NCBI GenBank assembly: GCA_964436855.1
Contig: CAYTED010000004.1
Span: 67,627-131,626 of the forward strand
DNA from: an uncultured Bdellovibrionales bacterium
Lineage (GTDB): Bacteria > Patescibacteriota > Minisyncoccia > Moranbacterales > UBA1568
Reading direction: 5' to 3'
Length of the DNA stretch: 64,000 bases
The notes below the pieces were generated by a model, which saw nothing but the letters and a program-made list of their open reading frames with translations, was not told where the DNA came from and did no database searches. Every line of letters begins with the position of its first letter. Within the stretch, counting starts at the first letter, position 1. Of this stretch, positions 9,667-30,536 are shown piece by piece. The position numbers were made by a program, and so were the translations under genes.

Positions 9667-9730
9667 CGGCACGCAAATGAAAACAGGCCCCGTGAAGAGG
9701 TCTGTTTTCATTTGAGAGAAAACGAGAAGC

Positions 9731-10900: not shown

Positions 10901-10948
10901 TATCTATCTTTCATTTACCCCGTTCTTTTTCTTATCTCCAATACCAAA

Positions 10949-10970
10949 GCCCCGCAACGGCGGGGTTTTT
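10949..10970 (+). terminator. Rho-independent terminator (GC hairpin CCCCG-caacgg-CGGGG followed by TTTTT)
   Basis: Seen in the sequence right after the 10900 stop. Confidence 0.6.
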
Positions 10971-10976
10971 GGTTTG

Positions 10977-12404: not shown

Positions 12405-12407
12405 ATA

Positions 12408-12821
12408 CTAATAGTTCACAAGCGCCACCGCTCCGGCGGCAAGCGCCACCATCGCCTCAAGAAGAACGAGAGAAAGGAGTACACCGAATGAAAGCACCTT
12501 TTCCCGAAGAAAGACGAAAAGATAACGTGAGAGCATTGTATGCAATAAGAAAAACAACAATCCAACAAACGGGACAAAATACGCCTCCCACCATTCCCCG
12601 ATAACATCGACACCGAAATAAACATTGTAATGAAGCACAACCGGTGTCTCCCGTTTTCCAACAAAATACCATAATATTCCAAACGAAATGAGAAGCAAAA
12701 ACGCGCTGACCCCAAGCAAAGTTCTCACCATACCATTCTTCCAAAAACTCGGATCGGAAAGAAAAATATCTTCATTTTCCTTCAATTGATTGTGTATGGC
12801 GAGTTTCATAATCAAAATCAC
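12408..12821 (-). CDS. Hypothetical integral membrane protein (3-4 TM)
   Basis: Hydrophobic segments. Translationally coupled between rmuC and the WecA-like gene. Confidence 0.45.
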   Translation of the reverse strand: MILIMKLAIHNQLKENEDIFLSDPSFWKNGMVRTLLGVSAFLLLISFGILWYFVGKRETPVVLHYNVYFGVDVIGEWWEAYFVPFVGLLFFLLHTMLSRYLFVFLREKVLSFGVLLSLVLLEAMVALAAGAVALVNY

Positions 12822-13921: not shown

Positions 13922-13929
13922 AAAGTACG

Positions 13930-14535
13930 CTATTTTTTAATGCCAGCGATAAAACGTTTCAATTCGGGAACACGATTCACGACCTCCTCGTATGGACCCT
14001 CGAGAAATTCGATAAAAAAACGATCGAGCATATTCAGTCGATACTGAAACTCCTCACTTGTCATAAGAACAAAACGAACTTCTTTTCCGATCTCCGCCTC
14101 AAGATGCGCAAGTGCCTGCTTTAATTTCGATCGATTCAAATGATTAACGACCAAGATAAGATCAGCCTTCGCCTTCGCATGATTGAGAAATACTCCGGAA
14201 ACAAGTGCGAGCTTGACCTCTCCAACTTGCTTTAATCGCCGAAAAACCTGCGACTGCGCACTAACATTCAGTTTCGCCACCAGGCCGAGCAGCTCGTGAA
14301 AAAACGGAAATTCACGATTCATCGAATAATACTTCTTTCCTCGTTTCGTTTTGCTTCCGACAAAGTGGAGTCGCTCCAGCCGTCCGACCTCAAGAGAAAT
14401 AGCAGGACGGCTCAACAAGGTTTTTTCCGAAATATCGGCGGTGGAAAATTCTCCATCCGGATTCAGAACAAAAAAACGAATGAGACGGGCGCGAGCTCTC
14501 GACCCAAACAAAGACTCAAAAATTTCGAGCGACAT
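13930..14535 (-). CDS. Hypothetical winged-helix (ArsR/MarR-like) DNA-binding protein
   Basis: ORF track 13930..14925. Start moved to MSLEIF because the ORF-track N-terminal extension (14536-14925) runs through the ext-10 promoter and start codon of the divergent 14660 gene. N-terminal wHTH-like (RLIRFFVLNPDGEFSTADISEKTLLSRPAISLEVGRLERLHFV). Confidence 0.4.
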   Translation of the reverse strand: MSLEIFESLFGSRARARLIRFFVLNPDGEFSTADISEKTLLSRPAISLEVGRLERLHFVGSKTKRGKKYYSMNREFPFFHELLGLVAKLNVSAQSQVFRRLKQVGEVKLALVSGVFLNHAKAKADLILVVNHLNRSKLKQALAHLEAEIGKEVRFVLMTSEEFQYRLNMLDRFFIEFLEGPYEEVVNRVPELKRFIAGIKK

Positions 14536-14640
14536 AATTCCTTTCAATTCATAATCAATCACCACCGTACCCTCCCAAGTATACGGGAACAGAAACAGGT
14601 CGTCAAAACACCGGTTTCTTTCCCGAAAAAGAAAGTTCTG

Positions 14641-14652
14641 TGGTATAATTTT
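14641..14652 (+). promoter_or_regulatory. Extended -10 promoter (TGgTATAAT) ending about 10 nt before the ATG of the 14660 gene (probable leaderless mRNA)
   Basis: tgtggtataattttatcgatt ATG read in the sequence. Confidence 0.45.
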
Positions 14653-14659
14653 ATCGATT

Positions 14660-16993
14660 ATGCGCGAAAAACGACATCGAATCACACCTCTTCCGGATAA
14701 AAAAATCGAGAGAAAAATCGAGGAGATATGTATCGCAAAAAATCGAACGGTCATGCCGTTTGTTTTGTCGTTTTCATACGAAGCCGAAAACATCGCTCTT
14801 TCGCCGCTCGGCAATTTATCCGGAGTTTTTTCTATTTCCGAACACGAAAGTGATTCGGCATATATCGGCAACTGCCTTGCCGCTGTCATCAAAAAAGAAT
14901 ACTTCGCCAATCCAAAAAAAAACACCGGGGACGCTTTTGAGGCCTCTCTTCATAAAACCAATCTGACTCTCGCAAAGCTCGTACAAGAGGGTCATGTCAG
15001 TTGGATCGGGAAGCTGCACGGCGCCATTATCGCCATACAAAAAGACGAGATTCATTTTTCCATATCCGGAAACGGTGCAGCACTCCTTTGCCGAAACGAC
15101 ATCTGTTCGGAAATCAGCGAGGGAATGAGCTCGGAAGAATCCAGTGAAAATCCCTTGAAAACATTCACCGACATCTCAAGTGGAACACTTCTTCCGGGAG
15201 ACAAAGTTCTTCTTTCCACTCCGGAATTGCTCGGACTCTTATCCCCCCTGGAAATTGGAAAACAGGCGAAAAAACTTGACCGGGAACGCTTCGCTCAATT
15301 TATAAAAACCGCGCTGATAAACACCTATTCACAAGCAGGTGTTATCATTATCGACATCGTCGAATCCTCCTCCGATTCGAAAGAATCACCACTTCGGTAT
15401 GCCGAAGAAACTAATCTTCCAGCCACATTATTGGACGAATCGGAATCGGCCTCCTATATCGAAAACATCTTCAGTGAACAAACCTTCCGAAAAAAAACGT
15501 CCCGTCGAAAACAAGCAAAAAATCCGCCAAAAGAACCCAAAGAAAAGCCGCTTTCAGTCCCCGGAGAGCGGGAACGAGACTCCGAACATATCGACACTCG
15601 AACAGGACACATCTATCTGCGAGGAGAAGATTTCCACCGCGACACCAACACTTCTCCAAGCGTGTTCTCGGAAACACTTTCCGATATATCCGACCGATTA
15701 TTCCGTTTCTTCGAAAGTTTCGGAAGGATAACCCTGCGCCTGTCTCGATCACTTGGAAAAACCAGTCTTGAATTCGGGAAAAAAATATACACGCAGGGAA
15801 AGTGCCTATTTCAATCAACCATCAGAGCTTTTCGAAAATCAATTTCTCACACACCCTCTTCTCAAATACAAAATCTACGATTTCGCGAAAATGTTTTTGA
15901 TGAAAAACCCCCCTCTTCAACTCCGGAATCCTCCGAAGCCACCCGCCTGAAAAGAATCGTTGTCACACTCCAAAAATCGCTTACGCGCCTGCCTACCTTT
16001 CGTACCCGATTCATACGAAAAGGCGCACTTCAATTGGTTCGTTTTTTCAGGAACACACAAAGAAGTCGCCTTGTAGTCGTAGCGAGTGCAATCACCACAC
16101 TCCTTCTCCTTATTTTCATTGTTTGGTTTTTCTTCAACAGAAAAAATACCGAAACAATTCCTCCTATTAAAACCACGCCAGAAAAGGTTGCTCCCGTATC
16201 ATCGTCGGTACTTCCGCCCGCCGACGAACCAAATGCACAACAAATTTCCGAATTGGAATTGTTCTCCGCGGACGATAGCACATCTTCTCCCACTCTCCCG
16301 ATTCTCCTCAATAACAAACTGTTCGCCATTACCGAAAACGTTCTCGTCAACACCGAAAATAAGCTTTCGCTTCAAATTCCGGAAAGCGCCGCGCCCATAC
16401 TTCGCGCAACCGCTATGAATGACCTCAATGCCATTTTCCTCTACGGATCAGATAAAAAAATGTACCTGTATTATCCGAATGCGAAATCTTTCATCGAAAA
16501 TACCTTTTCCCTCCCGGACAATTTTTCTCCCGACGATATGGGGACATATCTCACCTATCTCTATGTCTTCGATCGAAAACAAGGAAGAATTCTTCGATTC
16601 CCGCGAGCCGAAGGAGGGTTTGGCATACCAAATGAATGGCTCAAAGAAAAAATGTCCTTTTCGGAAAACGCTCAAATAAGTATCGGCGAGAATATCCTCA
16701 TCGGATCGGAAAACACGATTTTTTCTTTCTCGAAAGGAAGAGGCGCACCACTCTCTCTTTCGGAAATCAAAACTCCGATAGCTATTCAGGATATCGCCAT
16801 CGTCGAGGACAGCTCATTTGCCGCACTTGATGCCAAAAACAAAAGAATCGTCCGATTCGGAAAGGACGGACAACTTCTTGGGCAATACTACAGCGAACGT
16901 CTCGGGGAGGCGCGATCCATCGCCGTTTCCTCAAATGGAACCGCCGTCTATGCGGCCGTCGGAAGCAAGATTTTTCTTTTTGAGATACAGTAA
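14660..16993 (+). CDS. Large hypothetical membrane-anchored protein (777 aa) with a C-terminal beta-propeller-like repeat region
   Basis: Central TM helix (LVVVASAITTLLLLIFIVWFFF). A Lys/Arg-rich linker. The C-terminus has repeated hydrophobic/Gly blocks reminiscent of NHL/YVTN repeats. Confidence 0.4.
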   Translation: MREKRHRITPLPDKKIERKIEEICIAKNRTVMPFVLSFSYEAENIALSPLGNLSGVFSISEHESDSAYIGNCLAAVIKKEYFANPKKNTGDAFEASLHKTNLTLAKLVQEGHVSWIGKLHGAIIAIQKDEIHFSISGNGAALLCRNDICSEISEGMSSEESSENPLKTFTDISSGTLLPGDKVLLSTPELLGLLSPLEIGKQAKKLDRERFAQFIKTALINTYSQAGVIIIDIVESSSDSKESPLRYAEETNLPATLLDESESASYIENIFSEQTFRKKTSRRKQAKNPPKEPKEKPLSVPGERERDSEHIDTRTGHIYLRGEDFHRDTNTSPSVFSETLSDISDRLFRFFESFGRITLRLSRSLGKTSLEFGKKIYTQGKCLFQSTIRAFRKSISHTPSSQIQNLRFRENVFDEKPPSSTPESSEATRLKRIVVTLQKSLTRLPTFRTRFIRKGALQLVRFFRNTQRSRLVVVASAITTLLLLIFIVWFFFNRKNTETIPPIKTTPEKVAPVSSSVLPPADEPNAQQISELELFSADDSTSSPTLPILLNNKLFAITENVLVNTENKLSLQIPESAAPILRATAMNDLNAIFLYGSDKKMYLYYPNAKSFIENTFSLPDNFSPDDMGTYLTYLYVFDRKQGRILRFPRAEGGFGIPNEWLKEKMSFSENAQISIGENILIGSENTIFSFSKGRGAPLSLSEIKTPIAIQDIAIVEDSSFAALDAKNKRIVRFGKDGQLLGQYYSERLGEARSIAVSSNGTAVYAAVGSKIFLFEIQ

Positions 16994-17103: not shown

Positions 17104-19593
17104 CTACGCTTCCCTGGCAATCCCCGTCCGCTCCATAATTTCACGATTGACGATATCGGCATCGCGACCAAAACGGAGTCGCGAGAGTTCCTTTAGGGCA
17201 TTCGCGATTTCCTGATTGCCGTTTGTCGGCGCGTAGGTTTTCATATTGAACGGCTTTGTGAGCTCGTTATTCATCAGAAGTCGCGCAAAACAGTTTCGAT
17301 TATCCACATTCACCAAATCCTTCGCCGTAAAGACCGGCCCGAATTGCTTCTCCAAAAACTCGCCGTCTTCGGGACCAACACGAAATGCAATCATTGAACC
17401 GACGTTCCCGAACACCGCTTTCGAAATCTCTTCTTTGAGTTGGGCGATAAATTGATGCGCGATCACAAGCACCAAACGATACTTCCGCGCTTCGGAGAGA
17501 ATCTGCGCGATCGAATTCGTCGTCACATTTTGAAACTCATCCATATAGAGATAGAAATCCTTCCGATCCGCCTCGGGCGTATCGACACGGGAAAGCGCCG
17601 CCATAAGAATCTTCCCGACAATCACCATTCCGAGAAGTCGCGCATTAATCTCACCGATTTTTCCTTTCGAAAGATTCACGAGAATGATTTTCCCGTTATC
17701 CATCGCTTCACGGAAATTAATCGTGCTTTCCTGTTGCGCGATAATCGGCCGCATCAAGTCATTTGAAATAAAAGAAGTGAGTTTCGAGGTAATATACGGC
17801 ACCATATTGGCAAGCGCCGCCTCGCCCCCCGCCTTCTCCGCTTCTTTCGTCCAAAAATCATACACGACCGGATTTTTGCATTTTGACAATTTATACCGAC
17901 GAAAATCTTCGTCCGCGAGCACTTTCGAGATTTCCATCAGGGTCGATCCGCTCTCCGGATCCTCCATAATAAGAAGCATCGCATTCCGCATATACTGCTC
18001 AAACATCGGGCCGCCGGTCGCCTTCAAATCATACAACTGATCAAAAATGCCGATCATTTCGTTAATAACGAATGTTTTTTGTTCCGGATGCGCCGCATCG
18101 AATTCCATCATATTCATTCCGATTGGCCGTTCAATATCCGACGGATCAAAGAGAACCACATCTTCGGCACGCTCTTTCGGAATCGCCGTCAAAATATCTT
18201 CAATCGCATCGCCATGCGGATCGATAAAACAAAATCCTTTGCCATTCCGCGCATCCTGCTTCGCCATTTCCTGCAAAAAAACGGACTTTCCGACACCGGT
18301 CTGACCGATCACATACATATGACGTCTTCGATCCGTATCGGTAATGCGAACAGCCGTCTCCGTACCGCGATAATCATTGTATCCGAGTTTGATTCCTTCT
18401 GTCGGAATATTGACCGGCGGCGGCGCGGCACCGGCCTTCAACCATTTGATTTTCGGCGTCTCCACCATCGATGTTGGCACATGAAACACGCTCGCCACTT
18501 CTTCAGTCGAGAGAATCATCGCATGTTCCTCATCGAAATTCCGGAAAATATAATCAAACGCCGATTGTTTCCGTTTCGCGCGCTTGCGAACCCGAAACGA
18601 ATTCACTTCCGGATTTTCAAATTGCGCGAATGCATTTTCGATATGTGCGAGAATCTCGTCGGCGCGCTCGATTGTTCCCGCCGATGTAACCAAACGAATA
18701 TTGACCTTAAACGCCTGTTTCGAAACCTTCGCATCAATCTGTTTCACAAGCTCCTGTTCTTCCGGTGTAAGCGATACCGGCGTTTCGTCTTTCTTGGCGG
18801 ATCCGATTTCTTTCCCCGGAATCATGATTTCGGCAAGCCCCTGACCAACACCCTTCCCAACCGATTGAAGTACCGAACTCCCTTGAGCGTCTTTGAGACG
18901 TTTTCCTCCCTGCATTTTTTGAGCGATATCGCGACCTTTTGAACGCCATCCGCTCCCCGCGGGCGCAAGAACAATCTGAATCGCCGCGCCTTCGTCGGTT
19001 GAATTCAATTTTGAAAGCGCATTCGTCACTTCCGACAGCGGATCGACATTGAGCGTTCGGTAAGTCTTAATGGGAAGCGCATACGATTTTGACAGCTCGA
19101 GAACCGAAAAGGCGGTCGCGCTTCCCGGCGTAAAAATCGTATAGTCCGTTACCTTTTCAACAACCGCGTCGGGGAAAAATCCGTGCAATTGCTTCTCGAT
19201 CGACTCGCGAAATTTCTTAGGAACGGCAAGATAGAAAAAAATTTCCTCTTTGCCGGACGGATTTGCGATCTCGAAAATAATATTCGGCGTCTCATAAAAC
19301 CACGACCGCCACCCGAGCTTTCGTTTCATCGTGGCAAGCGTTCCGAGAAATTGTTCCATAGCCGCCACTTCTTCTTTCCATTTTTCCGCACCCGGCTGCG
19401 TATTCGTATCATCCCGCTTATCGCTTTTCGCGACACGGATCACCTCAAGATCCATCGCGATCGACCGACTCACCTGAATTCGAAATCGAAAAAAACTCCG
19501 GACTATGAGAAAAATCCCGGAACAAAACGTCAACACTCCGAAGAGGAGCGTTATCGGAACGAGAATAATGTTTGGATCGAATCCTCCTGACAT
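17104..19593 (-). CDS. TraG/TraD/VirD4-family type IV secretion coupling protein-like ATPase (FtsK/HerA superfamily)
   Basis: N-terminal TM helix. Walker A YVIGQTGVGKS, IDPHGD, Walker B FYLYMDEFQNV, and RKYRLVLVIAHQFIAQL (T4CP family Q-x-x-Q-L motif). Strong SD (GGAGGA) before the ATG at 19591-19593. Confidence 0.6.
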   Translation of the reverse strand: MSGGFDPNIILVPITLLFGVLTFCSGIFLIVRSFFRFRIQVSRSIAMDLEVIRVAKSDKRDDTNTQPGAEKWKEEVAAMEQFLGTLATMKRKLGWRSWFYETPNIIFEIANPSGKEEIFFYLAVPKKFRESIEKQLHGFFPDAVVEKVTDYTIFTPGSATAFSVLELSKSYALPIKTYRTLNVDPLSEVTNALSKLNSTDEGAAIQIVLAPAGSGWRSKGRDIAQKMQGGKRLKDAQGSSVLQSVGKGVGQGLAEIMIPGKEIGSAKKDETPVSLTPEEQELVKQIDAKVSKQAFKVNIRLVTSAGTIERADEILAHIENAFAQFENPEVNSFRVRKRAKRKQSAFDYIFRNFDEEHAMILSTEEVASVFHVPTSMVETPKIKWLKAGAAPPPVNIPTEGIKLGYNDYRGTETAVRITDTDRRRHMYVIGQTGVGKSVFLQEMAKQDARNGKGFCFIDPHGDAIEDILTAIPKERAEDVVLFDPSDIERPIGMNMMEFDAAHPEQKTFVINEMIGIFDQLYDLKATGGPMFEQYMRNAMLLIMEDPESGSTLMEISKVLADEDFRRYKLSKCKNPVVYDFWTKEAEKAGGEAALANMVPYITSKLTSFISNDLMRPIIAQQESTINFREAMDNGKIILVNLSKGKIGEINARLLGMVIVGKILMAALSRVDTPEADRKDFYLYMDEFQNVTTNSIAQILSEARKYRLVLVIAHQFIAQLKEEISKAVFGNVGSMIAFRVGPEDGEFLEKQFGPVFTAKDLVNVDNRNCFARLLMNNELTKPFNMKTYAPTNGNQEIANALKELSRLRFGRDADIVNREIMERTGIAREA

Positions 19594-19726
19594 TGTGTTT
19601 TGTTTTCTCTTTAAAACATTTCCCCGAAAAATCCTTTTCGGAAAGTTTTTTCGCTGTCCGGTCCGCCAACTGGCAGATTAACCGGCAAGAAAAAGATTTT
19701 CGCAAAGGATTTTTCGCAAAATAACA

Positions 19727-20164
19727 CTACTCTTCCTGAATCATTCCCTTCGCCTTCAGCGCCTCATAAAATTTCTCCGCGAGCTCATCGTGCATTCGAT
19801 CCAAAACATAAAAATCATTTAATTTCCGTGCGACATTCACGGCATGCGCGATACCTTTTACCGTCGCAATCTGCACGAGCTCATTCACCTGACTTTCCGC
19901 ATCCGTCATCCCGGCAACGCTCTGCGCGTCACTCGCAATCGCCGCCGTATCGTCTGACTGCTGCGACCCGGCGCCACCGACGCGAGAGAGAATGTTCGAG
20001 AAGTGGAGCTCCGCCTTCTCGGATTTCTTTTCCTGTTCGGGAGAAGTTTCGGTCGGCATCGCACCGTCCATATCCTGTTTTTCTTTAGATACTTCAGCCG
20101 ACACTTCACCCGACTGCGCTCCCTCCGGATTCTTCTCATCAAAAAAAATAATCTCTTCAGCCAT
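19727..20164 (-). CDS. Hypothetical acidic protein
   Basis: ORF track 19727..20191. No recognisable domain. Co-directional with the VirD4-like gene. Confidence 0.35.
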   Translation of the reverse strand: MAEEIIFFDEKNPEGAQSGEVSAEVSKEKQDMDGAMPTETSPEQEKKSEKAELHFSNILSRVGGAGSQQSDDTAAIASDAQSVAGMTDAESQVNELVQIATVKGIAHAVNVARKLNDFYVLDRMHDELAEKFYEALKAKGMIQEE

Positions 20165-20221
20165 ACTCGATAAACAGTCAACAATTAACAAGAAAATCTC
20201 TCCTCTTCATTCCACGAGACT

Positions 20222-20536
20222 CTAGATCGCCACATCCTTCTTCATCTCCTCCTTAAAATCCGCTACGATCTTCTCAATCATCGCCTCATAATCCGGAATT
20301 TTCGACTCAAAATACCGCTTCACCTCGTCTTCGCTCGCCCCATTGTCGACCATTTTCTCATATTCCACAACTCCGTCCTCTCCAAGTCGATCAAAGGTAT
20401 CAACCATAATCCTCTTAATGAGTACCTCCCCCATTTTCCCGATAAGCTCAAGCTGCTTTTCTTCCGGAAGCGATGCGAGTCCCATTTCTTCCACAAGATT
20501 TTTAAACATTGCCTGATAATCCGCTGGTGTTGTCAT
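20222..20536 (-). CDS. Hypothetical small acidic protein (104 aa)
   Basis: Clean ORF in the same operon-like run. No recognisable domain. Confidence 0.4.
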   Translation of the reverse strand: MTTPADYQAMFKNLVEEMGLASLPEEKQLELIGKMGEVLIKRIMVDTFDRLGEDGVVEYEKMVDNGASEDEVKRYFESKIPDYEAMIEKIVADFKEEMKKDVAI

Positions 20537-20562
20537 ATGTTTTTATTTATCGAATATATAAA

Positions 20563-23500
20563 TTATCGTGTCGTGGTAAAGAGTCCCGAGATACCAATCC
20601 GTTGACCCTGCTGAACGCTTGGGGCGATATGCTTGAGGTAATCCCCGACCGTCGCATTTCTGTGTCCGTTATAAAATTCAACCAAGCTCGGAATTTTCTT
20701 GTCACTGGAAAAGTCCACAAAATTCTTCAATTGATCGGCATTGAGTCCGGTAATATAACCCGAAATATTGCCAGCCTGAAGCAATTTCACGTCTCGCGCA
20801 ATATTGGAGAGGCTTTGATCTAAAAGTTTTTTCTGAATTTCAGAATTCGTAAGAGATACAATATTCTCATTTTCCGGCGTACGAAGAAGATCCCTTGACC
20901 AATCCTCGACGCGCGGCCGATATTTCACCACGTCAAGATTAGACTGCAATTCCGAGATCTGCGCGGACGCGGTATCAAGCTCTCCGCGAAGCGCTTCCTC
21001 CGCTGAATGATCAATACTCGGAGATGGTTCCGGAATCGCAATAGGGATTGAGTCGGGAGGAACTTCAGTCGATGACGGTACCCCCGAGATCCCGCGTCCA
21101 TGCACGGCTTGCCCCGTCACCCCCGAACCTTGCCCGAGAATTTCTTCGTCGATAACCTTGTCGGTCAAACGCTCACCCGGATGCGCTTTTATCCACTCGG
21201 CGATTTTCGCATTATTCTCGGCAATACTTTTCGTCGTCGCGTCCGAAATCTTTTCCGCACCGGAAACCGCTTTTTCGATATCCGCCGCCGAAAATGCCTT
21301 ATCGAGATTGATTGTTTCTCCCACACGAAGAGCATCAATATCCTTACTCCCAAATCCAAGGTCTTTTAATTTTTCCGGCGAAAATGTTTTCAGCTGATTC
21401 TTAAGCGTATTGATCGCATGCGTCTGTCGTTCCGGATCAAGATTGGCAAACCTCTCGTTCTGAATGGCAAGATGTTTCTCGAGAATTTTCCAGGTATTGT
21501 CTCCTTTTGAAACTTCAAAAGACCCAAAATTCCCGCCAGAAGAAACGGATGGGACGGCTTCTCCTGAAGAAGATGTGGCTCCCGCATCAGCGAAAACATT
21601 CTTCGTATCAGCTGTTGGTGCTTTCATCGACGCACCCGGATCAGCACCACCCCCTCCAGGCGTATTCACTCTTCCGACAGACGGAGTTTTAGCACCAGCA
21701 CCCGTGTCTCCGGGCTGTGGTCCGGCGGGATAAGCTGGAGCGGTATCGCCCGAAAAAAACATCGAATCAAGTTTGTGAATCAATGCGCCACTCGCAAATC
21801 CTAATACACCACCAATGGTCAATGCTGCGATTTTTCGAGCGCGAAATCCAAACTTTCTCCGAGAAAGGTTTGTATCCGCTTCTCGAGTGGTTGCCCGCAA
21901 AAGCTCATCAAGTTTTGCAAGCTGCTCTTTGATATCCCCAGACCCTCTTACTATTTCTCCGGATTCCAGCACATCATTTTCAAGTCCCCTCTCTTGGAAA
22001 GACGTTGCGATTTTTTCAAACGCCGAATCTGCAGTTACAAAAGCCCCGGCCGTTAATGCGGCTCGCCGAACAAGTATCAATCCGGCGACCGCCGCAACAC
22101 CGCCGGTTGCAATGCTCGCTCCCGCAAGTGCAAGACCGATTGCTGCTTTTGTTTTCCAGTTCAGCTTGTTGTATGCCTTCCCGACATCTTCAAATAGTCC
22201 CAATGCCTTGGCAGGAATTCCCTCTCGTTTTGTTCTCGCATCGGTCCATGCCTTGTACAATTCAATCTTTGACTCGGCTCCAAAATATCGAAATTCGATT
22301 GCCATTTTCTCCCGTAACTCCTCTTCGGAATGATGTTCCGATTTCAAACGCTCAAGACGGGCATCGATCAGTTTATTTAATGTTTGCTGGTAATGTCCTT
22401 TATGAAACTGAATATCCTTGTCGGCATCTTTATTCTGGCTCCCGATATGGAGAATGGACTTGATCCGCGCCCACGCACTTGATTTTCGATACTCCGTTTC
22501 CGCGTACGCCTTGCGCGCTTCGGCAAGCTCGGCGGTCAGTCGAGTAATTTCGCCGTCAAGTTCGGAAACACCAGCCATATCCTTCGCACGCGCATCCATC
22601 TCCTCGACGCGTTCTTTGAAATCTTTCTTGTGCTTGTTTTCAAGCTCATCTTCCATTTCCTCTCGAGCCGCTTTCCTTTGATCTTCCGTAGGATTCAGAA
22701 CATAATTTCCGTTATTATCCTTAAAATACACCGCGCCATTCTTCACGAGTTCGGCATCCGAAAGTTTTCGCGAGGCCATAAGCGTCGCCATCTCTTCATC
22801 GGAATATTCTCGCCCCTTCACTTTCTTTTTCTTCTTGTCAAATTCCGCATTTTCTTTTTCAGCGGATTTTCGTAATTGTGCATTTTGTTCATCCGTAAGT
22901 TGTAGACGCAATCGATCATCTCCTTTCTTATCCTGCCTTGCTTCATCGGGAACATATTTCGCCCCACGGCGAATCAAATCCGCTTCTCCAAGTATCCTCT
23001 CTCCTCTTATCCGTGTCTCTTCATCTTCCACTGCATTCACTGGTTCGGGGGTTGCTGGACTCGGAGGAGTCGCGACTGGCGTGGATGGGATGGGTGGGAT
23101 CGGAGTCGGTTGGGAAGAAACTGGTGGCACAGGAGGCATTTGAGACGGTGTTGTTGGCTGCACGGAAGGCGTAGCCGAGGCCTGATTCGGAGCCTGTACG
23201 GCTGCCGGGCTTGAAGAAGGTGTGGCTTCTTTAAGAATCCATGCGCCCTGCATTTTTTTCACAAGTTCCTCAATATTAATAGGTTTTCCGCTTCCTTTTT
23301 TCCCACGAAAAAATACATCTCCTTCACGATAAAGATTCATTTTCGCACCCCCACTACTCACCAGAACAAAAACTTCTCCGTCAGCAACCTGTAAAAGACG
23401 CTCCCTGTGTTCAAGAGTTGCGTCCGGAGGAACCGCAGCAAAGTTCTCCATATCATTCTGCATGGCTACAAGATGTGCGGCAATACTTGTCAATCCAGAT

Positions 23501-23664
23501 GCATCGACATCCGGAATATTTTGTGGCGCGCCAGGATCAGGATTCGGGGGCATGGAGGCAGTAGCTGCAGGATTTTTACCAAGATCCAAATCCGGAAGAT
23601 TCGCCCGGGCAGCATCAGCAGCCGCACTGCTTGCTGCAAGCGCTTGCTGTAAAAGATCGTCCAT
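20563..23664 (-). CDS. Very large hypothetical protein (1034 aa) with Pro/Thr/Ser-rich linker, coiled coil, two TM helices and Gly-rich segments
   Basis: ORF track 20563..23727. ATG at 23664 (MDDLL) preceded by GGAGG. PTS-rich stretch TPSSSPAAVQAPNQASATPSVQPTTPSQMPPVPPVSSQPTPIPPIPSTPVATPPSPATPEP. TM helices AAIGLALAGASIATGGVAAVAGLILV and IAALTIGGVLGFASGALI. Confidence 0.5.
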   Translation of the reverse strand: MDDLLQQALAASSAAADAARANLPDLDLGKNPAATASMPPNPDPGAPQNIPDVDASGLTSIAAHLVAMQNDMENFAAVPPDATLEHRERLLQVADGEVFVLVSSGGAKMNLYREGDVFFRGKKGSGKPINIEELVKKMQGAWILKEATPSSSPAAVQAPNQASATPSVQPTTPSQMPPVPPVSSQPTPIPPIPSTPVATPPSPATPEPVNAVEDEETRIRGERILGEADLIRRGAKYVPDEARQDKKGDDRLRLQLTDEQNAQLRKSAEKENAEFDKKKKKVKGREYSDEEMATLMASRKLSDAELVKNGAVYFKDNNGNYVLNPTEDQRKAAREEMEDELENKHKKDFKERVEEMDARAKDMAGVSELDGEITRLTAELAEARKAYAETEYRKSSAWARIKSILHIGSQNKDADKDIQFHKGHYQQTLNKLIDARLERLKSEHHSEEELREKMAIEFRYFGAESKIELYKAWTDARTKREGIPAKALGLFEDVGKAYNKLNWKTKAAIGLALAGASIATGGVAAVAGLILVRRAALTAGAFVTADSAFEKIATSFQERGLENDVLESGEIVRGSGDIKEQLAKLDELLRATTREADTNLSRRKFGFRARKIAALTIGGVLGFASGALIHKLDSMFFSGDTAPAYPAGPQPGDTGAGAKTPSVGRVNTPGGGGADPGASMKAPTADTKNVFADAGATSSSGEAVPSVSSGGNFGSFEVSKGDNTWKILEKHLAIQNERFANLDPERQTHAINTLKNQLKTFSPEKLKDLGFGSKDIDALRVGETINLDKAFSAADIEKAVSGAEKISDATTKSIAENNAKIAEWIKAHPGERLTDKVIDEEILGQGSGVTGQAVHGRGISGVPSSTEVPPDSIPIAIPEPSPSIDHSAEEALRGELDTASAQISELQSNLDVVKYRPRVEDWSRDLLRTPENENIVSLTNSEIQKKLLDQSLSNIARDVKLLQAGNISGYITGLNADQLKNFVDFSSDKKIPSLVEFYNGHRNATVGDYLKHIAPSVQQGQRIGISGLFTTTR

Positions 23665-23701
23665 GCCTCCTCTTTTTCTTGGCATAAGCAATACAAAAAA
23701 T

Positions 23702-25360
23702 TTATTTTGGTTCCTCATTATCAACAATGATCCCCTCTCCCTCTATCACCACCCCAGCCTCTTCATCACCAATACCCCCTTCAGTATCAGAAGCTGTATC
23801 ATTTTCTTGCATATATTTTTTGATCATCTCCCTCACCAGCTGGTGAATTTTCGGGAGCACCGTGTGAGCATCAACATACCCTGCCCACATTGAAACTGTC
23901 TTTTCCGCCTGCTCACCAATATGTTGTGAGATATTCTTTGCAGCATAAGGGGTATTGTTGAGCACACTCACAACCTCAAGTCCACTTGATTCGAGAGACT
24001 TACAAAGTGCTTCCCATGCTTTTTCGAGAACGACCATCGTATTCTCTACTACTTGTTTTCGAATTTGCTCCATTGAAACCAGACCGCGAGAACCCTCTGG
24101 TTGACCTTGTTCGATATTTGCTTGTACGGATCCTTCCCCGGCGCTTGCTACCGATGAAGCTACTGGCGTTGCCTCGCCATCACCACGAGCATCTTCATTC
24201 GCTGCCTTCTTAAAAATCTCCCCCAGCTCCGCTTGAAATTCAGCCGTAACAAGTTTTCCTCTCCCAAATTGAGGCGCCCGACTCTTCGATCGATCCTGCT
24301 TGAATCTTTTGCGAACTCCCTCTAAAATCGGTCGGAATTCCCTACGAAGATCACGGTTGCATTGATCAATCATCCTCTGAATTCCGGATTTTTTATAAAA
24401 GTCAAAGAAATATCTCTCAAATTTTTCCTTCTGTATTTTTTGTTCCTCTGCGCTCCCCTGATTTTTTGTTGTAGTAAACGACTCCTGTATCGGTTTTAAA
24501 ATAATCATCATCTTCTTTGCTTGCTCGGAAAGTCTCTCGCGATCGGAGTCTTTCACAGAAGAAAATTCTCCTTTCGATGCTGCGACAATATCCTCAAATT
24601 TCCTCGGGAGAAACATCCGGAGTTTCATTTTCTTCTCTATAAATTCCTCTCTCTTGTCGCGATTCCCTTGAGCTGGCACCCGAAGGGTTACTTCCTCTAC
24701 CCAACCAATATCATACAGTTTCGGCTTTTCTTTCCCTGCTTCTTCCCGAAGACTCTTCGAGAGATCCCCCTTCATATTTTCGAGAGCAAAACTAAGAATT
24801 CGAACAAGGTATGCTCGCTCGATATCTCTTTCGGCTATAAAATATGATTTTCCGGCGAGCCTTTTCTCGTCTTGTGCAAGATTTCGAAACGCTTGTGCGA
24901 GGCTATTTTCTCCTCGAAGAGAAGGGAGATACAATACTTCATCGGTGGTCGAATGGGGAAAAACTTGGATGAGAGGCACGGAAGCATCAGAGAGGCCCCG
25001 TACATCTTGTTTGACTCTGTCGACTGCTTGTTTGAGTTGTGCCCCGAATGCTCGGAGCTTTTCGGATTCATGCTCTTCGAAGTATATATCAAACCTCGGT
25101 CTTGGCTTTTTTGCTTGATCCTTTTTCGCTGGATTTTCCGGTTCCTTTTGTGGAGATTGCAAGGCAGCATTTTCCGTAGATGGAGAATCTTGCAAAGAAA
25201 AATCTGCAGCCGCCGAAAGAAGCTCTTCGGCATTCGGTTCGTGTGCGTCACCACCTTCAACCGTTTTCGGAGATTTCGGAGCTCGCCGCGATCTTGGTTT
25301 TTTTTCTTGTTCTGGATTTGCCGGTGCTGGTATTGGCATCCCCGGTTCTCTTTTTGGCAT
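23702..25360 (-). CDS. Hypothetical Lys/Glu-rich coiled-coil protein (about 550 aa)
   Basis: ORF track 23702..25399, start uncertain. No recognisable domain. Co-directional with neighbours. Confidence 0.45.
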   Translation of the reverse strand: MPKREPGMPIPAPANPEQEKKPRSRRAPKSPKTVEGGDAHEPNAEELLSAAADFSLQDSPSTENAALQSPQKEPENPAKKDQAKKPRPRFDIYFEEHESEKLRAFGAQLKQAVDRVKQDVRGLSDASVPLIQVFPHSTTDEVLYLPSLRGENSLAQAFRNLAQDEKRLAGKSYFIAERDIERAYLVRILSFALENMKGDLSKSLREEAGKEKPKLYDIGWVEEVTLRVPAQGNRDKREEFIEKKMKLRMFLPRKFEDIVAASKGEFSSVKDSDRERLSEQAKKMMIILKPIQESFTTTKNQGSAEEQKIQKEKFERYFFDFYKKSGIQRMIDQCNRDLRREFRPILEGVRKRFKQDRSKSRAPQFGRGKLVTAEFQAELGEIFKKAANEDARGDGEATPVASSVASAGEGSVQANIEQGQPEGSRGLVSMEQIRKQVVENTMVVLEKAWEALCKSLESSGLEVVSVLNNTPYAAKNISQHIGEQAEKTVSMWAGYVDAHTVLPKIHQLVREMIKKYMQENDTASDTEGGIGDEEAGVVIEGEGIIVDNEEPK

Positions 25361-25413
25361 ATGTTTTCTTAATGATATCAAAAAGGAAGCGACTCGCAAA
25401 ACATTTTTTTAGG

Positions 25414-26742
25414 CTACTTCTTCGAATCCCGTTTTTCGGAAAGCCATTGCAACGAAAGTACCTTCATCTTTTCCAAAGAAATTCCTTCTTTGCTCCCAAG
25501 AAGTTCAAATATCTTCCGTGAAAACGTTTCCGCGGTTTTCGAAAGTGACTCTTCCGAGAGCAAAACCTTCGCAAGTTTTAATTCGTCGCCTTGAACTCTA
25601 AGGAGAAAAAACTTCCAGAATTGCTCAAAAGCATCCTGAATAGCCTGGGGAATCTTTTTTTCTTCCTCTTCAATCTTCGGGATAACTTCCGCAGCAGGAA
25701 AAACTTCTTCTTTCTTGCTGGTGAGAGGTTTCGTCGAACCCTCTCCGGATATTACCGATTGAATCCTTTCATAATCAGCAATACTTAATCCATTCCGCTC
25801 TGAAACAAAACCCCCTTCCGGAAAATGACTCGCATCCGCAACAACTGTTCTCTGTCGCATGTTGAGTTGCTTTTTTCCTGAATTCCCATTCATTCTCTCG
25901 TTTCGTTCCGCATCCCTCTTCGCCTTTCGCTCGAGACGTTCGCGGCGCTCTTTTTCTTCTCGCCCACGGAGAGAATCGCGGTGCACATACGTTCGTCCTT
26001 CGTATACCGCTATTTCGGCGAGTTTCTTGTAGGAAACAAATTCTTCCGGAAGATGTTGGAAAAAATCCCTCATCGCTTGAAGATCAGAAGAAGTGTCTTT
26101 TCCTGCGGAAATTTTTCGCTCATACGCTTCGACAAGTTCCCGTAACACCTGTTTTTCCATATGAAAATGGAGTTGCAGTGCCCAATTGTCTTCTTCGGAA
26201 TTCCCCTCTCTTCCAAGGGAAGAAACTTCCACCCGCTCCATATCGAGAAGTAAGCCTCGTCCGTACACCTCAAACTCCCGTTCCGCTTTGGAACGATTCC
26301 GTTCTTTTTTACCGCTTATCTTGGCACTCAAGCCCGATCGCTCAAGAATTTCCCCGACCTTTTCCGCTGGTCGGACCGTAATATTCTTCTTTCCTTTTTC
26401 AAAAAATCCGACTTCCCGTTCGCCGTTTACTCCATCGGAAACATACTTAACCTCGATATCCGGCTCATCTCCGCGCTGAAGGACATTAGGATCAGACGCA
26501 TATGTGTCGCCCGGATAAATGTCAGGTTGTTTTTTTCTTTCTTTTGAACCGTTATTTGAGGCAACGCTCAAAGAAACATTCGAAGAAGATTCGACGCCAT
26601 CTTGCTTCTTTTTTGGTTGTCTCGGAATTTTTATTCCTGGTGGAATGTTCTCCCACTCTCCTGAAGATACTTTCTTTTTGACAGCGCCCGAAAGATCTTT
26701 CACTTCGAATTGTTTGAAAATACCCGCTTCATTCATTGCCAT
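25414..26742 (-). CDS. Hypothetical charged coiled-coil protein (442 aa)
   Basis: First gene of the minus-strand run. No recognisable domain. Confidence 0.45.
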   Translation of the reverse strand: MAMNEAGIFKQFEVKDLSGAVKKKVSSGEWENIPPGIKIPRQPKKKQDGVESSSNVSLSVASNNGSKERKKQPDIYPGDTYASDPNVLQRGDEPDIEVKYVSDGVNGEREVGFFEKGKKNITVRPAEKVGEILERSGLSAKISGKKERNRSKAEREFEVYGRGLLLDMERVEVSSLGREGNSEEDNWALQLHFHMEKQVLRELVEAYERKISAGKDTSSDLQAMRDFFQHLPEEFVSYKKLAEIAVYEGRTYVHRDSLRGREEKERRERLERKAKRDAERNERMNGNSGKKQLNMRQRTVVADASHFPEGGFVSERNGLSIADYERIQSVISGEGSTKPLTSKKEEVFPAAEVIPKIEEEEKKIPQAIQDAFEQFWKFFLLRVQGDELKLAKVLLSEESLSKTAETFSRKIFELLGSKEGISLEKMKVLSLQWLSEKRDSKK

Positions 26743-26813: not shown

Positions 26814-28406
26814 ATGCAAAAATTCTGGTACGATCTTCTCTCTCCAAAGCGATTCGTTTTCTTTCTTGCGCTCATTCTCGTTCTCGCATTTTTCCTCCGC
26901 ACCTGGAATATCGACGACATTCCGGGCGGACTCTACCCCGACGAGGCGATGAACGGTACGAACGCAATCGAAGCAAACGAAACAGGGCACTACAAACTTT
27001 TTTACGAAGACAATTTCGGTCGCGAGGGACTCTTTATTAATCTGCAGGCGCTCGCGATCAAATATCTCGGTGTAAACATTCCCGCGCTCAAACTCTGGTC
27101 GGCGATTTTCGGTACACTTGCCGCGCTCGGCATCGGACTTCTCGCGCTCGAACTCTTCGGCCGACGTTCTGCCGCGCTCGCCGCCGCCTTTATCACCACC
27201 ACCTCATACTGGGCGATCAATTTTTCCCGAATGGGATTCCGCGCGATCATGGTAACCGCACTCCTTTCATTTTCCTTTTATTTTTTCTTCCGCGGACTCC
27301 GTACGGAACGCAAGTGTTCTTTTTTCTTCGCCGGAGCACTTCTTGGTCTCGGTCTTCATACCTATATCGCCTTCCGACTCGCGCCGGGCATACTCATCCT
27401 CCTTCTTCCCTTTCTCCTCCTCTCTTACGAAAATTTTCTCAAACGATTTTGGAAACACGCGTTCGTATTCGTCTTTGGCGCCTTTCTCACCGCCGCGCCG
27501 ATGTTTTATGATTTCTCTCAAAATCCACATCACTTCGCTTCTCGCTCCGACGATGTCTCGATTTTCTCCGAAAAGGTGAACAAGGGCGACCTTTGGGGAA
27601 CATTCGGAAAAACCTTCGGCCTCTCGCTCATCAAATACAATTTTGTGGGCGATCAAAACTTCCGACACAACTATCCGCCCTATCCGATCCTCGACCCGAT
27701 CATCGGCACGTTTTTCCTCGCCGGCTTTCTCTGGATTCTTGTCGACACCATCAAACTCTTCGGTCTCCGACTCCGAAACAAAGAACGCCACCCGAAACTT
27801 GCCATCAATGCCTTTCTTTTCATCTCTTTCTTTGTCATGCTTGCGCCGGAGTACCTTACCAATGAAGGACTTCCGCACGCTCTCCGCGCGATCGGCACGC
27901 AAGTCTCGGTGTTTCTCTTTGCTTCTTTTCCGATCGCATTTCTCTTCAATCGCGCGCTGCACGCGCAAGCGGTCGGGCGATCCCTTTTTCTCTCGCTTTT
28001 CTTCCTGACCCTCATAACAAGCGGCCTCTGGAATGGTGTAAAATATTTTTATTTCTTCGCAAATCATCCGAAACAATACGAATCATTCGCCGCGAGATTC
28101 CGCAGTATGTCGCTCTATCTGAATTCCCTTCCGGAAAATACGCATAAATATTTGTACGCGAATACCGGATACATCGACCTCCAGGCCATCCTCTTTCAAA
28201 CTTCCGGTCGCGTAAAAAACTTTCAAGTCCTGCAGCCCGACACGAAAATCGAACGCCCGGCCGTTATCCTACAAATGCGCTATGATGACCGCGTCTTCGA
28301 AAACATCAAACAGCGCACTCCGAATGCAATTGTACGACAAGCCGACCCGCTGCAAAAACCCGGAACAAACTTTCTCGTCATCGAAATTCCGGACGAGAAA
28401 AAATAG
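26814..28406 (+). CDS. GT-C fold glycosyltransferase, PMT/ArnT (GT39/GT83) family
   Basis: About 12 TM helices, a first-loop GLYPDEAMNGTNA (DE motif), and overall PMT_2 / ArnT-like architecture. An extended -10 promoter (TGaTATAAT) lies upstream at about 26778-26790. Confidence 0.65.
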   Translation: MQKFWYDLLSPKRFVFFLALILVLAFFLRTWNIDDIPGGLYPDEAMNGTNAIEANETGHYKLFYEDNFGREGLFINLQALAIKYLGVNIPALKLWSAIFGTLAALGIGLLALELFGRRSAALAAAFITTTSYWAINFSRMGFRAIMVTALLSFSFYFFFRGLRTERKCSFFFAGALLGLGLHTYIAFRLAPGILILLLPFLLLSYENFLKRFWKHAFVFVFGAFLTAAPMFYDFSQNPHHFASRSDDVSIFSEKVNKGDLWGTFGKTFGLSLIKYNFVGDQNFRHNYPPYPILDPIIGTFFLAGFLWILVDTIKLFGLRLRNKERHPKLAINAFLFISFFVMLAPEYLTNEGLPHALRAIGTQVSVFLFASFPIAFLFNRALHAQAVGRSLFLSLFFLTLITSGLWNGVKYFYFFANHPKQYESFAARFRSMSLYLNSLPENTHKYLYANTGYIDLQAILFQTSGRVKNFQVLQPDTKIERPAVILQMRYDDRVFENIKQRTPNAIVRQADPLQKPGTNFLVIEIPDEKK

Positions 28407-28550: not shown

Positions 28551-30536
28551 ATGCGCCACTTCCTCGACCCGATTAAGAAAAATGCCGCGCTTGCGGTGTT
28601 CGCGCTCCTCGCCGTTTTTGTTCTCCTTTCGCTTACTGGCGCACGAAACGATTCCGCCACATTCGATGAGCGTGCTCATATTCCCGCTGCCTATAGCTAT
28701 GTCCGCTACAGCGATATGCGACTCAATCCGGAGCATCCGCCACTTTTAAAAGACTTAGCCGGTCTTCCGCTTCTTCTCCTTGATTTGAAATTCCCCATTG
28801 AAAGCGAACTTTGGACGAAAGGCGTGAACGAACAATGGAATCTCGGAACACTCTTTCTCTATCGAATCGGGAACAATCCAAACGACATTCTCTTTTTCTC
28901 CCGACTCCCCATTATTCTCATCGGTCTTCTTCTCGGATACTTTCTGTATCGGTGGGGTAAAGAACTCTCCGGAACGCTCACTGGTATTTTTGCGGTCGCG
29001 CTCTTTGCGCTTGATCCGAATATGATCGCGCACGGTCATTATGTAACAACCGATCTCGGCATCGCCGCGGCGATTTTCATCGCCACGTATTTTTTCGTCC
29101 GATTCCTTAAAAATCCCTCACCGAAAAATATCATCGTCGCCGGTATCGCGCTCTCGCTCGCCCAACTCACCAAATTTTCCGCCGTTCTCCTCTTTCCGCT
29201 TTTCGGACTCATTCTCTTTGTGTACGCAATCGTCAGATACGAACACGACGACAAAACGCCGACCTTGAAAGAAAAATTGATATGCGTACGACAATGGATC
29301 GCCCGATATATCCAAATTGTTATCATCGCTTTCATCGGCATTTATATCGTCTACGCGGCGAATACCTGGAATATGCCGGCTGAAAAAACGATTGAAAACG
29401 CCGCCATTGTGTTCTCCGGTCCCGCGCCCGCAAAAGTCTTCGCCAGAGAAACAATCGGAGCGATGTCTTCCGTTCCGGTCCTGAAGCCACTCTCGCATTA
29501 CTTTCTCGGCGTCTTTATGGTTTTCTCTCGCGTCGCTGGCGGGAACACGTTTTACTTCGACAACCCATTCTTTCATGACACCTCGCGCCCGCTTGTCGCA
29601 AATATCGCCTCTCCGTGGTATTTTCCGGCGGTTTTCCTGATGAAAGAGGCCCTCCCGTTTCTTTTTCTCTTGTTTCTTTCCGGTTGTTACGCGTTCTACC
29701 GAATCATCCGAGCCTTCGCGGAGAAAAAAACACTCGCCGCGCGCGCTCACCTCATCGCCGAAAGTTTCCGCACACGCATCGCCCAGTGGACCATACTCGC
29801 ATTCGTCGCACTCTATACCTACCTCTCCATTACCGGAAACTTAAATATCGGTCTCCGGCACCTTTTCCCCATTCTCCCTCTCCTCTATCTTCTTGTCGCG
29901 AAAACCGTTGCCGACTTCATCACGCGACGCATCGAACACGAAAATCGTCTCACTGGCTATCGTTCCAACCTTCACCGCATCCTCTTCACTACGCTCGGGT
30001 TTGGCTTTTTCTCGTGGATGGTGTTTATCCCAGTTGCAGCATCGCCAAACTTCCTCTCGTATTTCAATGAAACCGTTGGATCGAAAAATGGGTATTGGTA
30101 CGTGACAGATTCCAATTACGACTGGGGACAAGATCTCAAGCGAGTGAAAGAATTCGTCGAACGGTACAACGCCTGCGTATCACAGGCACGATCAATGTCA
30201 GACTGTCTTGGTCGCAGATTTTCCGCAACCCCCGCGCTTAATTCAATCGGACGATCTCCTATCGATACAATCCGTGTCGATTATTTCGGCGGCTCCGAAT
30301 CCGATATCGCGGTCGGCGCATATCTGAAGCCTTGGAATGCCGGTCTTGATCCGGAAGTTGGATGGTATGCTATATCGGCCACTTTCTATCAGGAAAGTAT
30401 TTACAAAAACATCCTCCCGACCGAAAAAACCTATCGCGACTGGATCCTCCCATTCAAACCGGTCGCTCGCGCCGGAGAGTCCATTCTCATCTTCCATATT
30501 TCAGAAGACGATCTTCAGATGATACGAGAGCGATAG
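28551..30536 (+). CDS. GT-C fold glycosyltransferase, PMT/ArnT family (paralog)
   Basis: Multi-TM protein, DERAHIPAAYSY first-loop motif, and a large C-terminal extracytoplasmic domain. Tandem with the previous gene. Confidence 0.65.
   Translation: MRHFLDPIKKNAALAVFALLAVFVLLSLTGARNDSATFDERAHIPAAYSYVRYSDMRLNPEHPPLLKDLAGLPLLLLDLKFPIESELWTKGVNEQWNLGTLFLYRIGNNPNDILFFSRLPIILIGLLLGYFLYRWGKELSGTLTGIFAVALFALDPNMIAHGHYVTTDLGIAAAIFIATYFFVRFLKNPSPKNIIVAGIALSLAQLTKFSAVLLFPLFGLILFVYAIVRYEHDDKTPTLKEKLICVRQWIARYIQIVIIAFIGIYIVYAANTWNMPAEKTIENAAIVFSGPAPAKVFARETIGAMSSVPVLKPLSHYFLGVFMVFSRVAGGNTFYFDNPFFHDTSRPLVANIASPWYFPAVFLMKEALPFLFLLFLSGCYAFYRIIRAFAEKKTLAARAHLIAESFRTRIAQWTILAFVALYTYLSITGNLNIGLRHLFPILPLLYLLVAKTVADFITRRIEHENRLTGYRSNLHRILFTTLGFGFFSWMVFIPVAASPNFLSYFNETVGSKNGYWYVTDSNYDWGQDLKRVKEFVERYNACVSQARSMSDCLGRRFSATPALNSIGRSPIDTIRVDYFGGSESDIAVGAYLKPWNAGLDPEVGWYAISATFYQESIYKNILPTEKTYRDWILPFKPVARAGESILIFHISEDDLQMIRER

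Follow-up and report, generated by a model that had tools for sequence, protein, structure and literature searches.

A conserved coupling-protein-type ATPase in a chromosomal gene cluster of Candidatus Moranbacteria

What does a VirD4/TraG-like ATPase do in a genome region that holds no other gene of a type IV secretion system (T4SS)? The question is raised by a 64-kb stretch of contig CAYTED010000004.1 from Candidatus Moranbacteria (hereafter the window), in which a minus-strand run of six co-directional open reading frames (ORFs) at positions 17104-26742 ends with the gene of an 829-amino-acid (aa) ATPase. The original prediction, made from the DNA letters, had described this run and read its six products as one undescribed envelope-spanning apparatus for secretion, DNA uptake or a surface appendage. 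ORF listing and translation reproduced the run at those positions, with the ATPase gene last. Judged by its sequence, the ATPase is a type IV coupling protein (T4CP) of the VirD4/TraG/TraD type with an intact motor, and it belongs with those of the monoderm and archaeal (MPF-FATA) conjugation systems. It is vertically inherited, spread over the Patescibacteria and under a housekeeping-level constraint comparable to that on RF1. The motor itself is of a known kind and its setting is unusual; no new secretion machine was demonstrated. The features of the ATPase gene are the following.

17104..19593, minus strand: 829-aa DUF8128-type T4CP with an N-terminal membrane helix, a VirB4-N-domain-like domain and a TrwB/VirB4-like P-loop ATPase
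19501..19569, minus strand: single N-terminal transmembrane helix, about residues 9-31 (hydropathy scan)
18394..19464, minus strand: DUF8128 domain, residues 44-400, with a VirB4 N-terminal-domain-like fold
18283..18306, minus strand: Walker A motif GQTGVGKS, residues 430-437 (translation; G430, G433 and K436 invariant in 16 diverse homologues)
17527..17550, minus strand: Walker B motif LYMDEFQN, residues 682-689 (translation; D685, E686, F687 and N689 invariant in 16 diverse homologues)

All four motifs on which the original prediction had based a coupling ATPase (GQTGVGKS, IDPHGD, YLYMDEFQN and VIAHQFIAQL) were present in the translation, with the core residues invariant in the 16 homologues. 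The Pfam models TrwB_AAD_bind and TraG-D_C both exceeded their gathering cut-offs, and these matches, together with the full-length homology to a T4CP of a conjugative cluster described below, uphold the assignment. The top NCBIfam matches were TraD/VirD4 models, but they lay far under the curated equivalog cut-offs (42 bits vs 366), so the ATPase is regarded as a distant T4CP member. Profile matches among PDB entries were TrwB (1.4e-7) and DotL (5e-5), and VirB4 was not among them. The VirB4 model TIGR00929 reached 22.6 bits against a cut-off of 643, over residues 674-760 only, and the CagE_TrbE_VirB Pfam domain had no match in the ATPase. The N-terminal domain has a VirB4-type fold. PF26449 (DUF8128) was precomputed for an identical public protein (P0001) and for 120 of 120 listed homologues, and the domain name is also given on L001 and L002; a profile of the DUF8128 sequence had no significant PDB relative. 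The predicted structure model contains a helical insert between the Walker motifs, and DotL and Cagbeta were structural matches of the C-domain. Neither HerA nor FtsK, which the original prediction had named as the outcome that would speak against it, was the best match in profile tests, and no HerA barrel, FtsK gamma domain or multi-helix N-terminus was found. An identity as HerA, FtsK, defence or mad8 ATPase was rejected, as the respective profile matches covered only the generic P-loop core.

Full-length relatives of the ATPase were detected by tblastn on 411 plasmids of Bacillus, Streptomyces, haloarchaea, Sulfolobus and others. The homologue WP_331738717 on the Embleya sp. plasmid NZ_CP108778 (27% identity over residues 95-809, E 5e-75 in BLASTP; Pfam T4SS-DNA_transf) occupies the coupling-protein slot of a monoderm conjugative system, with the gene order PrgI, VirB4/TraC-like ATPase, DUF8128-T4CP homologue, replication-relaxation protein and NlpC/P60. 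On pNVE500 of Natrinema versiforme, DUF8128 is encoded by a gene of its own (395 aa; hhalign 99.4%, E 5e-21; L085 8761-12991). It overlaps the start of the downstream 'TraM recognition domain' T4CP WP_229504813 and is preceded by a large 'conjugal transfer protein'. In haloarchaeal conjugative plasmids, the architecture that is fused in bacteria is split. Given the plasmid homology and the cluster slot, the window ATPase is therefore a bona fide member of the long-form T4CP lineage of MPF-FATA type.

With the long T4CPs of Embleya and Natrinema, the ATPase shares near-full-length homology, Pfam signatures and the Walker A and B motifs; a helical insert is seen in its model, and an N-terminal membrane helix is predicted from hydropathy. 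T4CPs typically have two such helices, whereas one is predicted here and none in relatives fused to the small protein S135, which is described below. Unlike them, the ATPase gene is chromosomal, vertically inherited and far from VirB4, a relaxase and a peptidoglycan hydrolase, and its product has S135 as a putative Patescibacteria-specific partner and shows housekeeping-like conservation. The comparison with VirB4 proper (TrwK of R388, Thermoanaerobacter VirB4) gave a different result: the ATPase falls short of the VirB4 sequence models and has its PDB profile matches in TrwB and DotL instead, and in bona fide clusters a separate VirB4-like gene adjoins the DUF8128-T4CP member. Full-length homologues also came from 66 phage records in tblastn, mostly of Bacillus Herelleviridae, at 21.8-24.2% identity over 82-89% of the query. 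Examples are Bacillus phage CP-51 gp91 (L086 4782-7517), JL, Shanette, G (gp156), SP-10 and Goe26, and the homologues are annotated as hypothetical in nearly all records listed. S135 and the proteins DUF5663 and BIG, which are treated with the run below, had no copy in the plasmid and phage loci.

An exhaustive HMMER search with the ATPase returned 22,118 representatives, 5,722 of them at E < 1e-30 and many full-length at 33-53% identity. More than 600 matches came from species-representative genomes. Homologues of the ATPase carry the names Candidatus Moranbacteria or Moraniibacteriota, and the window is accordingly a Patescibacteria (CPR) chromosome. For the comparison of neighbourhoods, ORFs were called in the window and 81 related loci (82 loci), hidden Markov models (HMMs) were made from the Moranbacteria orthologues and all neighbours were clustered. 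The 80 loci kept belonged to Moran-, Uhr-, Falkow-, Komeili-, Taylor-, Nomura-, Wolfe-, Doudna-, Staskawicz-, Azam- and Niyogibacteria and to Paceibacterota. Among Moranbacteria, the ATPase showed 67-74% identity, the highest of the neighbourhood, followed by RF1 (65-68%), RmuC (61-64%), an MraY-like protein (46-47%) and HolB (39%). To the closest relative, L083, it is 96% identical. The ATPase genes of other lineages lie in about 13 loci in the order S5-(L15)-SecY-Adk-Map-ATPase-NDK-RNase J-like. Paceibacteria-type genomes (L036, L038, L057 and about 10 more; around 4000-15000) carry an S135-fused ATPase gene directly after S5-(L15)-SecY-Adk-Map and ahead of NDK and an RNase J-like gene, a position at the tail of the spc ribosomal operon. 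DnaX or CysRS was located near the ATPase gene in further loci.

Clustering of the 82 loci left a single neighbour that is conserved across lineages. It is S135, encoded directly upstream of the ATPase.

19727..20164, minus strand: 145-aa S135, acidic, without a membrane segment (ATG at 20164 as in P0275; 154 aa over 19727-20191)

Conservation in S135 is concentrated in a C-terminal motif (KGxxxAVxVA...LDxFHDxL; about 55 residues). The gene was directly upstream of the ATPase gene in 26 loci, at distances from a 3-nucleotide (nt) overlap to a gap of 184 nt. An HMM made only from stand-alone copies of S135 matched about residues 15-135 of longer ATPases (about 910-970 aa) in 27 loci, with E values from 4e-13 to 3e-5; on the sequence evidence, these are gene fusions of S135 to the ATPase N-terminus. 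An N-terminal hydrophobic helix was present in 50 of the 55 unfused ATPases and missing in all 27 fused ones. Because S135 has no membrane segment and the fused ATPases have no helix, S135 appears to be cytoplasmic and to replace the anchor. A profile search with S135 gave at least 271 clusters at E <= 0.001. The best 120 of these had no Pfam domain and, where named, were called 'hypothetical protein' or carried generic names, with one JGI label 'ATP synthase subunit b'. No PDB relative of S135 and no sequence similarity to any solved protein were found. VirB3 has a membrane segment, whereas S135 has none.

S135 is proposed as a dedicated cytoplasmic partner or adaptor of the ATPase, with binding predicted from adjacency and fusion. 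A T4CP with small dedicated partners is a concept shared with DotL and its DotM/N/Y/Z and IcmS/W, Cagbeta with CagZ/CagF, and TraD with TraM (PMC12857230). Unlike the partners in those coupling complexes, S135 has no sequence likeness to solved proteins, and adjacency and fusion alone provide the link to its motor. In 11 loci without S135 (L018, L019, L021, L024-L028, L041, L066, L076), another conserved protein of ~165 aa with the motif WLKxIPGVNKFFLEQEAKIKTDKI is encoded directly upstream of the ATPase. Kinship of this protein (cluster 11, 11 loci) with S135 was rejected at an hhalign probability of 0.1%. A conserved ~230-aa protein was present downstream of the ATPase in 11 loci, mostly adjacent.

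The other four products of the run are restricted in distribution. Read from 5' to 3' with supported starts, the run encodes proteins of 442, 552, 1033, 104, 145 and 829 aa, separated by gaps of 53, 37, 26, 57 and 133 nt. Starts were chosen by support from the L083 orthologue and public records (P0121, P0275). GC content is uniform over the region. The run is a chromosomal gene cluster of Candidatus Moranbacteria and likely an operon.

25414..26742, minus strand: 442-aa soluble, highly charged, lineage-specific protein
23702..25360, minus strand: 552-aa soluble, highly charged, lineage-specific protein (ATG at 25360 supported by L083; 565 aa from TTG, 23702-25399)
20563..23664, minus strand: 1033-aa membrane protein BIG (ATG at 23664 as in P0121; 1054 aa from TTG, 20563-23727)
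20222..20536, minus strand: 104-aa DUF5663 protein, acidic, without a membrane segment (PF18908)

The five proteins besides the ATPase had been described as free of recognisable domains. This holds for four of them, and the 104-aa protein matched PF18908 (DUF5663) with 35.0 bits against a cut-off of 23.7 (E 2e-8), residues 14-97 aligning with positions 1-83 of the 84-position profile. DUF5663 is encoded on the same strand upstream of the ATPase in Moranbacteria loci and in L068, more loosely in L012, and elsewhere within the locus in three other lineages (L022, L063, L077). A Pro-Thr-Ser-rich composition, likewise ascribed to the large proteins, applies to about 80 residues of the 1033-aa protein only; the 442- and 552-aa proteins consist instead of 33-36% K/R/E/D. 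Membrane segments were predicted in two of the six run proteins.

BIG has no signal peptide. It has a stretch of about 80 Pro/Thr/Ser/Ala-rich residues, which are followed by charged segments and by a block conserved in Moranbacteria, with a coiled-coil-like motif and hydrophobic regions at about 508-541 and 612-630. Past these regions come a low-complexity stretch, a LysM-like motif ('V.KGDS.WKI...G..I.L' in the BIG alignment) and a C-terminal conserved block. Homologues were found only in Moranbacteria, in 9 other loci of the 82 and in L083, at a constant position and, L083 excepted, at 16-23% identity; a database search returned three matches only. BIG is the fastest-evolving gene of the locus. 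It is 56% identical overall to its L083 counterpart (10001-13060), compared with 96% for the ATPase, and the identity is distributed as a mosaic: residues 201-400 and 701-850 are at 80-100%, residues 401-650 and 851-1033 at 16-46%. This pattern suggests recombination or diversifying selection, chiefly in the last ~180 residues.

The 442- and 552-aa proteins have orthologues in L083 (79% and 77% identity) and, apart from these, no homologue in the 82 loci and no family match in Pfam or NCBIfam. Between the upstream PMT_2 gene, listed below, and BIG, every Moranbacteria genome has genes unrelated to those of the others; a common origin of these variable proteins was rejected, since neither BLAST nor phmmer detected any homology among them. 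In two non-Moranbacteria loci, L012 (3492-12466) and L068 (1155-9600), co-directional large proteins precede DUF5663, S135 and the ATPase, and these large proteins showed no detectable kinship with those of the window. The gene order, whose conservation the original prediction had put forward as a check, is partly conserved: S135 accompanies the ATPase across the phylum, BIG keeps its place within Moranbacteria, DUF5663 does so there and in two other lineages, and the 442- and 552-aa genes are shared only with L083.

An operator-like palindrome with nested inverted repeats had been reported upstream of the ATPase and taken as a sign of regulated expression.

19594..19726, minus strand: spacer of 133 nt that contains a long, imperfect hairpin (arms 19625-19652 and 19689-19716)

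The presence of the inverted repeat was confirmed, with arms of 28 nt that are 86% complementary and a predicted RNA fold of -48.1 kcal/mol (z = -5.15). Its regulatory reading is weak. The spacer had no Rfam match and no second copy in the window, and the L083 spacer is 76 nt long and lacks the hairpin. Hairpins with z < -4, dissimilar in sequence, occurred in 7 of the 11 S135-ATPase spacers, which come from different lineages, and also in 35% of 140 co-directional control spacers from the same loci. A conserved operator or riboswitch was rejected on these grounds. The hairpin is read as a generic intergenic stem-loop, that is, a terminator, attenuator or mRNA-stability element, and not as a specific operator.

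Two further genes flank the run.

26814..28406, plus strand: PMT_2-type polytopic glycosyltransferase (Pfam PMT_2), divergent from the operon, 71 nt upstream
14660..16993, plus strand: 777-aa protein with one membrane helix (about 471-489), convergent with the ATPase gene, 110 nt downstream

In 11 loci, a PMT_2-like glycosyltransferase gene was the next gene upstream in divergent orientation; six of these loci are from outside the Moranbacteria (L032, L035, L037, L039, L044, L058). In those six it abuts S135 directly (in L039, 170 nt upstream), and in Moranbacteria the variable genes, BIG and DUF5663 intervene between PMT_2 and the S135-ATPase pair. A second ORF at 28551-30536 (plus strand) was grouped with 26814-28406 under the PMT_2-type observation. 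In 9 other Moranbacteria loci, a homologue of the 777-aa protein (30-37% identity) is encoded on the opposite strand downstream of the ATPase gene, mostly adjacent to it. The protein had no Pfam match; by eye, its N-part looks PP2C/SpoIIE-like and its C-part beta-propeller-like.

The remaining window is composed of housekeeping genes, including EF-Ts, S2, RF1, PrmC, RmuC, HolB, FtsQ-like, MreB, MurA-like, Mur ligase, GAPDH, TIM, HisRS and signal peptidase. A DUF4012 protein (60744-62189, plus strand) comes after a 657-aa protein (58628-60601, plus strand) that combines three lamin-tail domains with one PKD domain; both are likely surface proteins without relation to the ATPase run. Six tRNA genes were observed, five in a cluster at 2728-4741 on the minus strand (Glu-CTC, Trp-CCA, Thr-GGT, Tyr-GTA, Thr-TGT) and, apart from it, Gly-CCC at 60600-60671 on the same strand. 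VirB4, VirB11, relaxase and integrase genes were absent among the larger ORFs of the window in the Pfam scan, in which four ORFs had no match at all. The original prediction was right that VirB4, VirB11 and a relaxase are missing and that this is not a canonical T4SS or conjugative element. Profile scans detected no VirB3-, VirB6- or VirB8-like channel subunit in the window, and Pfam and NCBIfam searches found no pilin, secretin, polytopic channel or peptidoglycan hydrolase in the run.

VirD4-like genes far from virB4 have already been published for nearly all Patescibacteria (PMC12102498). They were counted in 2,918 of 3,035 genomes (96%), with VirB4 in 2,417 (80%), and 148 of 5,713 VirD4-like copies were near virB4; the authors raised possible exaptation of the orphan genes. 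The orphan VirD4-like genes of Quinonero-Coronel et al. 2025 (PMC12102498) are very probably the same gene population as the ATPase genes described here, being VirD4-like, found in 96% of genomes and seldom close to virB4. That study gives counts only; neither the DUF8128/VirB4-like N-domain nor S135, as a partner or in fused form, is treated there, and the same holds for the degree of conservation and the operon of Moranbacteria. In the literature searched, no description was found of DUF8128 as VirB4-like, of S135 with its fusion and anchor swap, of the RF1-level constraint, of the spc-operon placement or of the BIG-DUF5663 operon in Moranbacteria.

The explanation to which somewhat more belief than doubt attaches is that the conserved T4CP motor and S135 form a coupling complex, most likely feeding a T4SS encoded elsewhere. 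The ATPase would form a hexameric ring at the inner membrane face, driven by nucleoside triphosphates. Its own helix would hold it there; in the fused forms, a binding partner of S135 may do so. S135 would serve as a dedicated adaptor, by analogy with the auxiliary proteins of DotL, Cagbeta and TraD (PMC12857230). With a hexameric motor and a dedicated adaptor, both inferred, the pair would make up a minimal 'coupling complex' that recruits a macromolecular substrate, protein or DNA, and passes it to a membrane channel. The likeliest channel would be the chromosomal patescibacterial T4SS, which is encoded elsewhere in its own cluster without a coupling protein; the essential T4SS cluster of Saccharibacteria has no recognisable coupling protein (PMC10633639). 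Service to this T4SS in trans is the most likely use of the ATPase, and it is put forward tentatively. In Moranbacteria, the motor would be co-expressed with DUF5663 and BIG. BIG is probably membrane-spanning, its coiled-coil half in the cytoplasm and the half with the LysM-like motif outside, and would link the motor with the envelope. The 442- and 552-aa proteins would be recent lineage-specific additions and not core parts.

Several observations weigh against this explanation. The window holds no T4SS gene besides the ATPase in the Pfam scan of its larger ORFs, and none of the 82 loci showed a second ATPase of the superfamily at a distance of up to about 10 kb. The model of the C-domain does not separate VirB4-like from VirD4-like proteins. 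Membrane anchoring is not universal, because the fused forms lack the helix. The T4CP is more widespread than VirB4, at 96% against 80% of genomes in the published counts (PMC12102498), and in S. epibionticum a t4cp homologue, which may or may not be of the DUF8128 type, was reported non-essential and the T4SS essential. As to the tie to the envelope, LysM (PF01476) matched weakly in 2 of 10 BIG orthologues, with a best E of 0.01, and the window BIG had no match, so an outward-facing, wall-binding C-half of BIG is plausible but is not a result.

Some of the same observations would suit an exapted housekeeping translocase, in which the DUF8128-T4CP/S135 pair no longer works for a T4SS. It would have a core cellular task, for instance in DNA uptake or export or in handling the chromosome or nucleoid at the membrane, aided by BIG or other lineage-specific partners. 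This is possible but doubtful. It would account for the RF1-level conservation, for the excess over VirB4 and the 148 of 5,713 copies near virB4, for the position at the end of the SecY-Adk-Map operon or by DnaX, NDK or CysRS in other lineages, and for RmuC, HolB, FtsQ-like and Mur/MreB genes among the window neighbours, and exaptation was also raised in PMC12102498. However, functional T4CPs too are commonly encoded far from virB4, ComEC-dependent competence exists separately (PMC12857230), and direct evidence for any particular alternative task is missing. A simple replacement of FtsK was rejected as unlikely, because Saccharibacteria have ftsK according to the literature. It is unlikely that the pair is a T4SS-independent, phylum-wide core translocation motor with an ancestral VirB4-like two-domain layout, which docks on fast-evolving envelope proteins such as BIG and has the 442- and 552-aa proteins as cargo or host-interaction factors. 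If true, this motor would represent an undescribed envelope translocon central to the epibiotic lifestyle.

The self-contained, ATPase-powered machine of all six proteins that was originally envisaged appears quite improbable. In its favour are the close spacing and common direction of the genes, the membrane segments and possible LysM-like outer part of BIG, and the co-directional runs of large proteins before DUF5663, S135 and the ATPase in L012 and L068. Conservation does not back such a unit, as only S135 follows the ATPase across the phylum: the soluble, highly charged 442- and 552-aa proteins are confined to the nearest relative, BIG is undetectable outside Moranbacteria, and about one third of the homologous ATPases have no membrane helix and lie amid ribosomal or housekeeping genes, without large neighbours of unassigned family. 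Membrane segments are predicted in only two of the six proteins, and the run lacks a pilin, secretin, polytopic channel and peptidoglycan hydrolase. The existence of plasmid and phage homologues, a PADLOC mad8 match (2e-15) with weak HerA matches, and the hypervariable upstream slot could point to a remnant of an integrated conjugative or mobile element or to a HerA/mad8-like anti-phage defence ATPase, yet either is highly improbable. The scans of the window showed no relaxase, integrase, repeats or defence partners, the mad8 and HerA matches span the generic P-loop core only, and the ATPase is the most conserved gene of its neighbourhood. With no relaxase or integrase, uniform GC content and vertical synteny, a mobile-element origin of the run was rejected.

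The Patescibacteria, which live in dependence on host cells, account for much of bacterial diversity. In the sole species studied by genetics, the T4SS is essential, yet its cluster has no coupling protein. The orphan VirD4-like gene, carried by ~96% of genomes, gains an anatomy here: its N-domain is VirB4-like, its motor intact and its constraint RF1-like, and in about a third of the lineages sampled the ATPase is fused to its dedicated small partner. Moranbacteria add BIG as a candidate membrane partner for the orphan motor. Whether that motor is a T4SS receptor or an exapted core motor becomes a directly testable question. A T4CP with a retained VirB4-type N-domain fits the descent of T4CPs from a VirB4-like ancestor.

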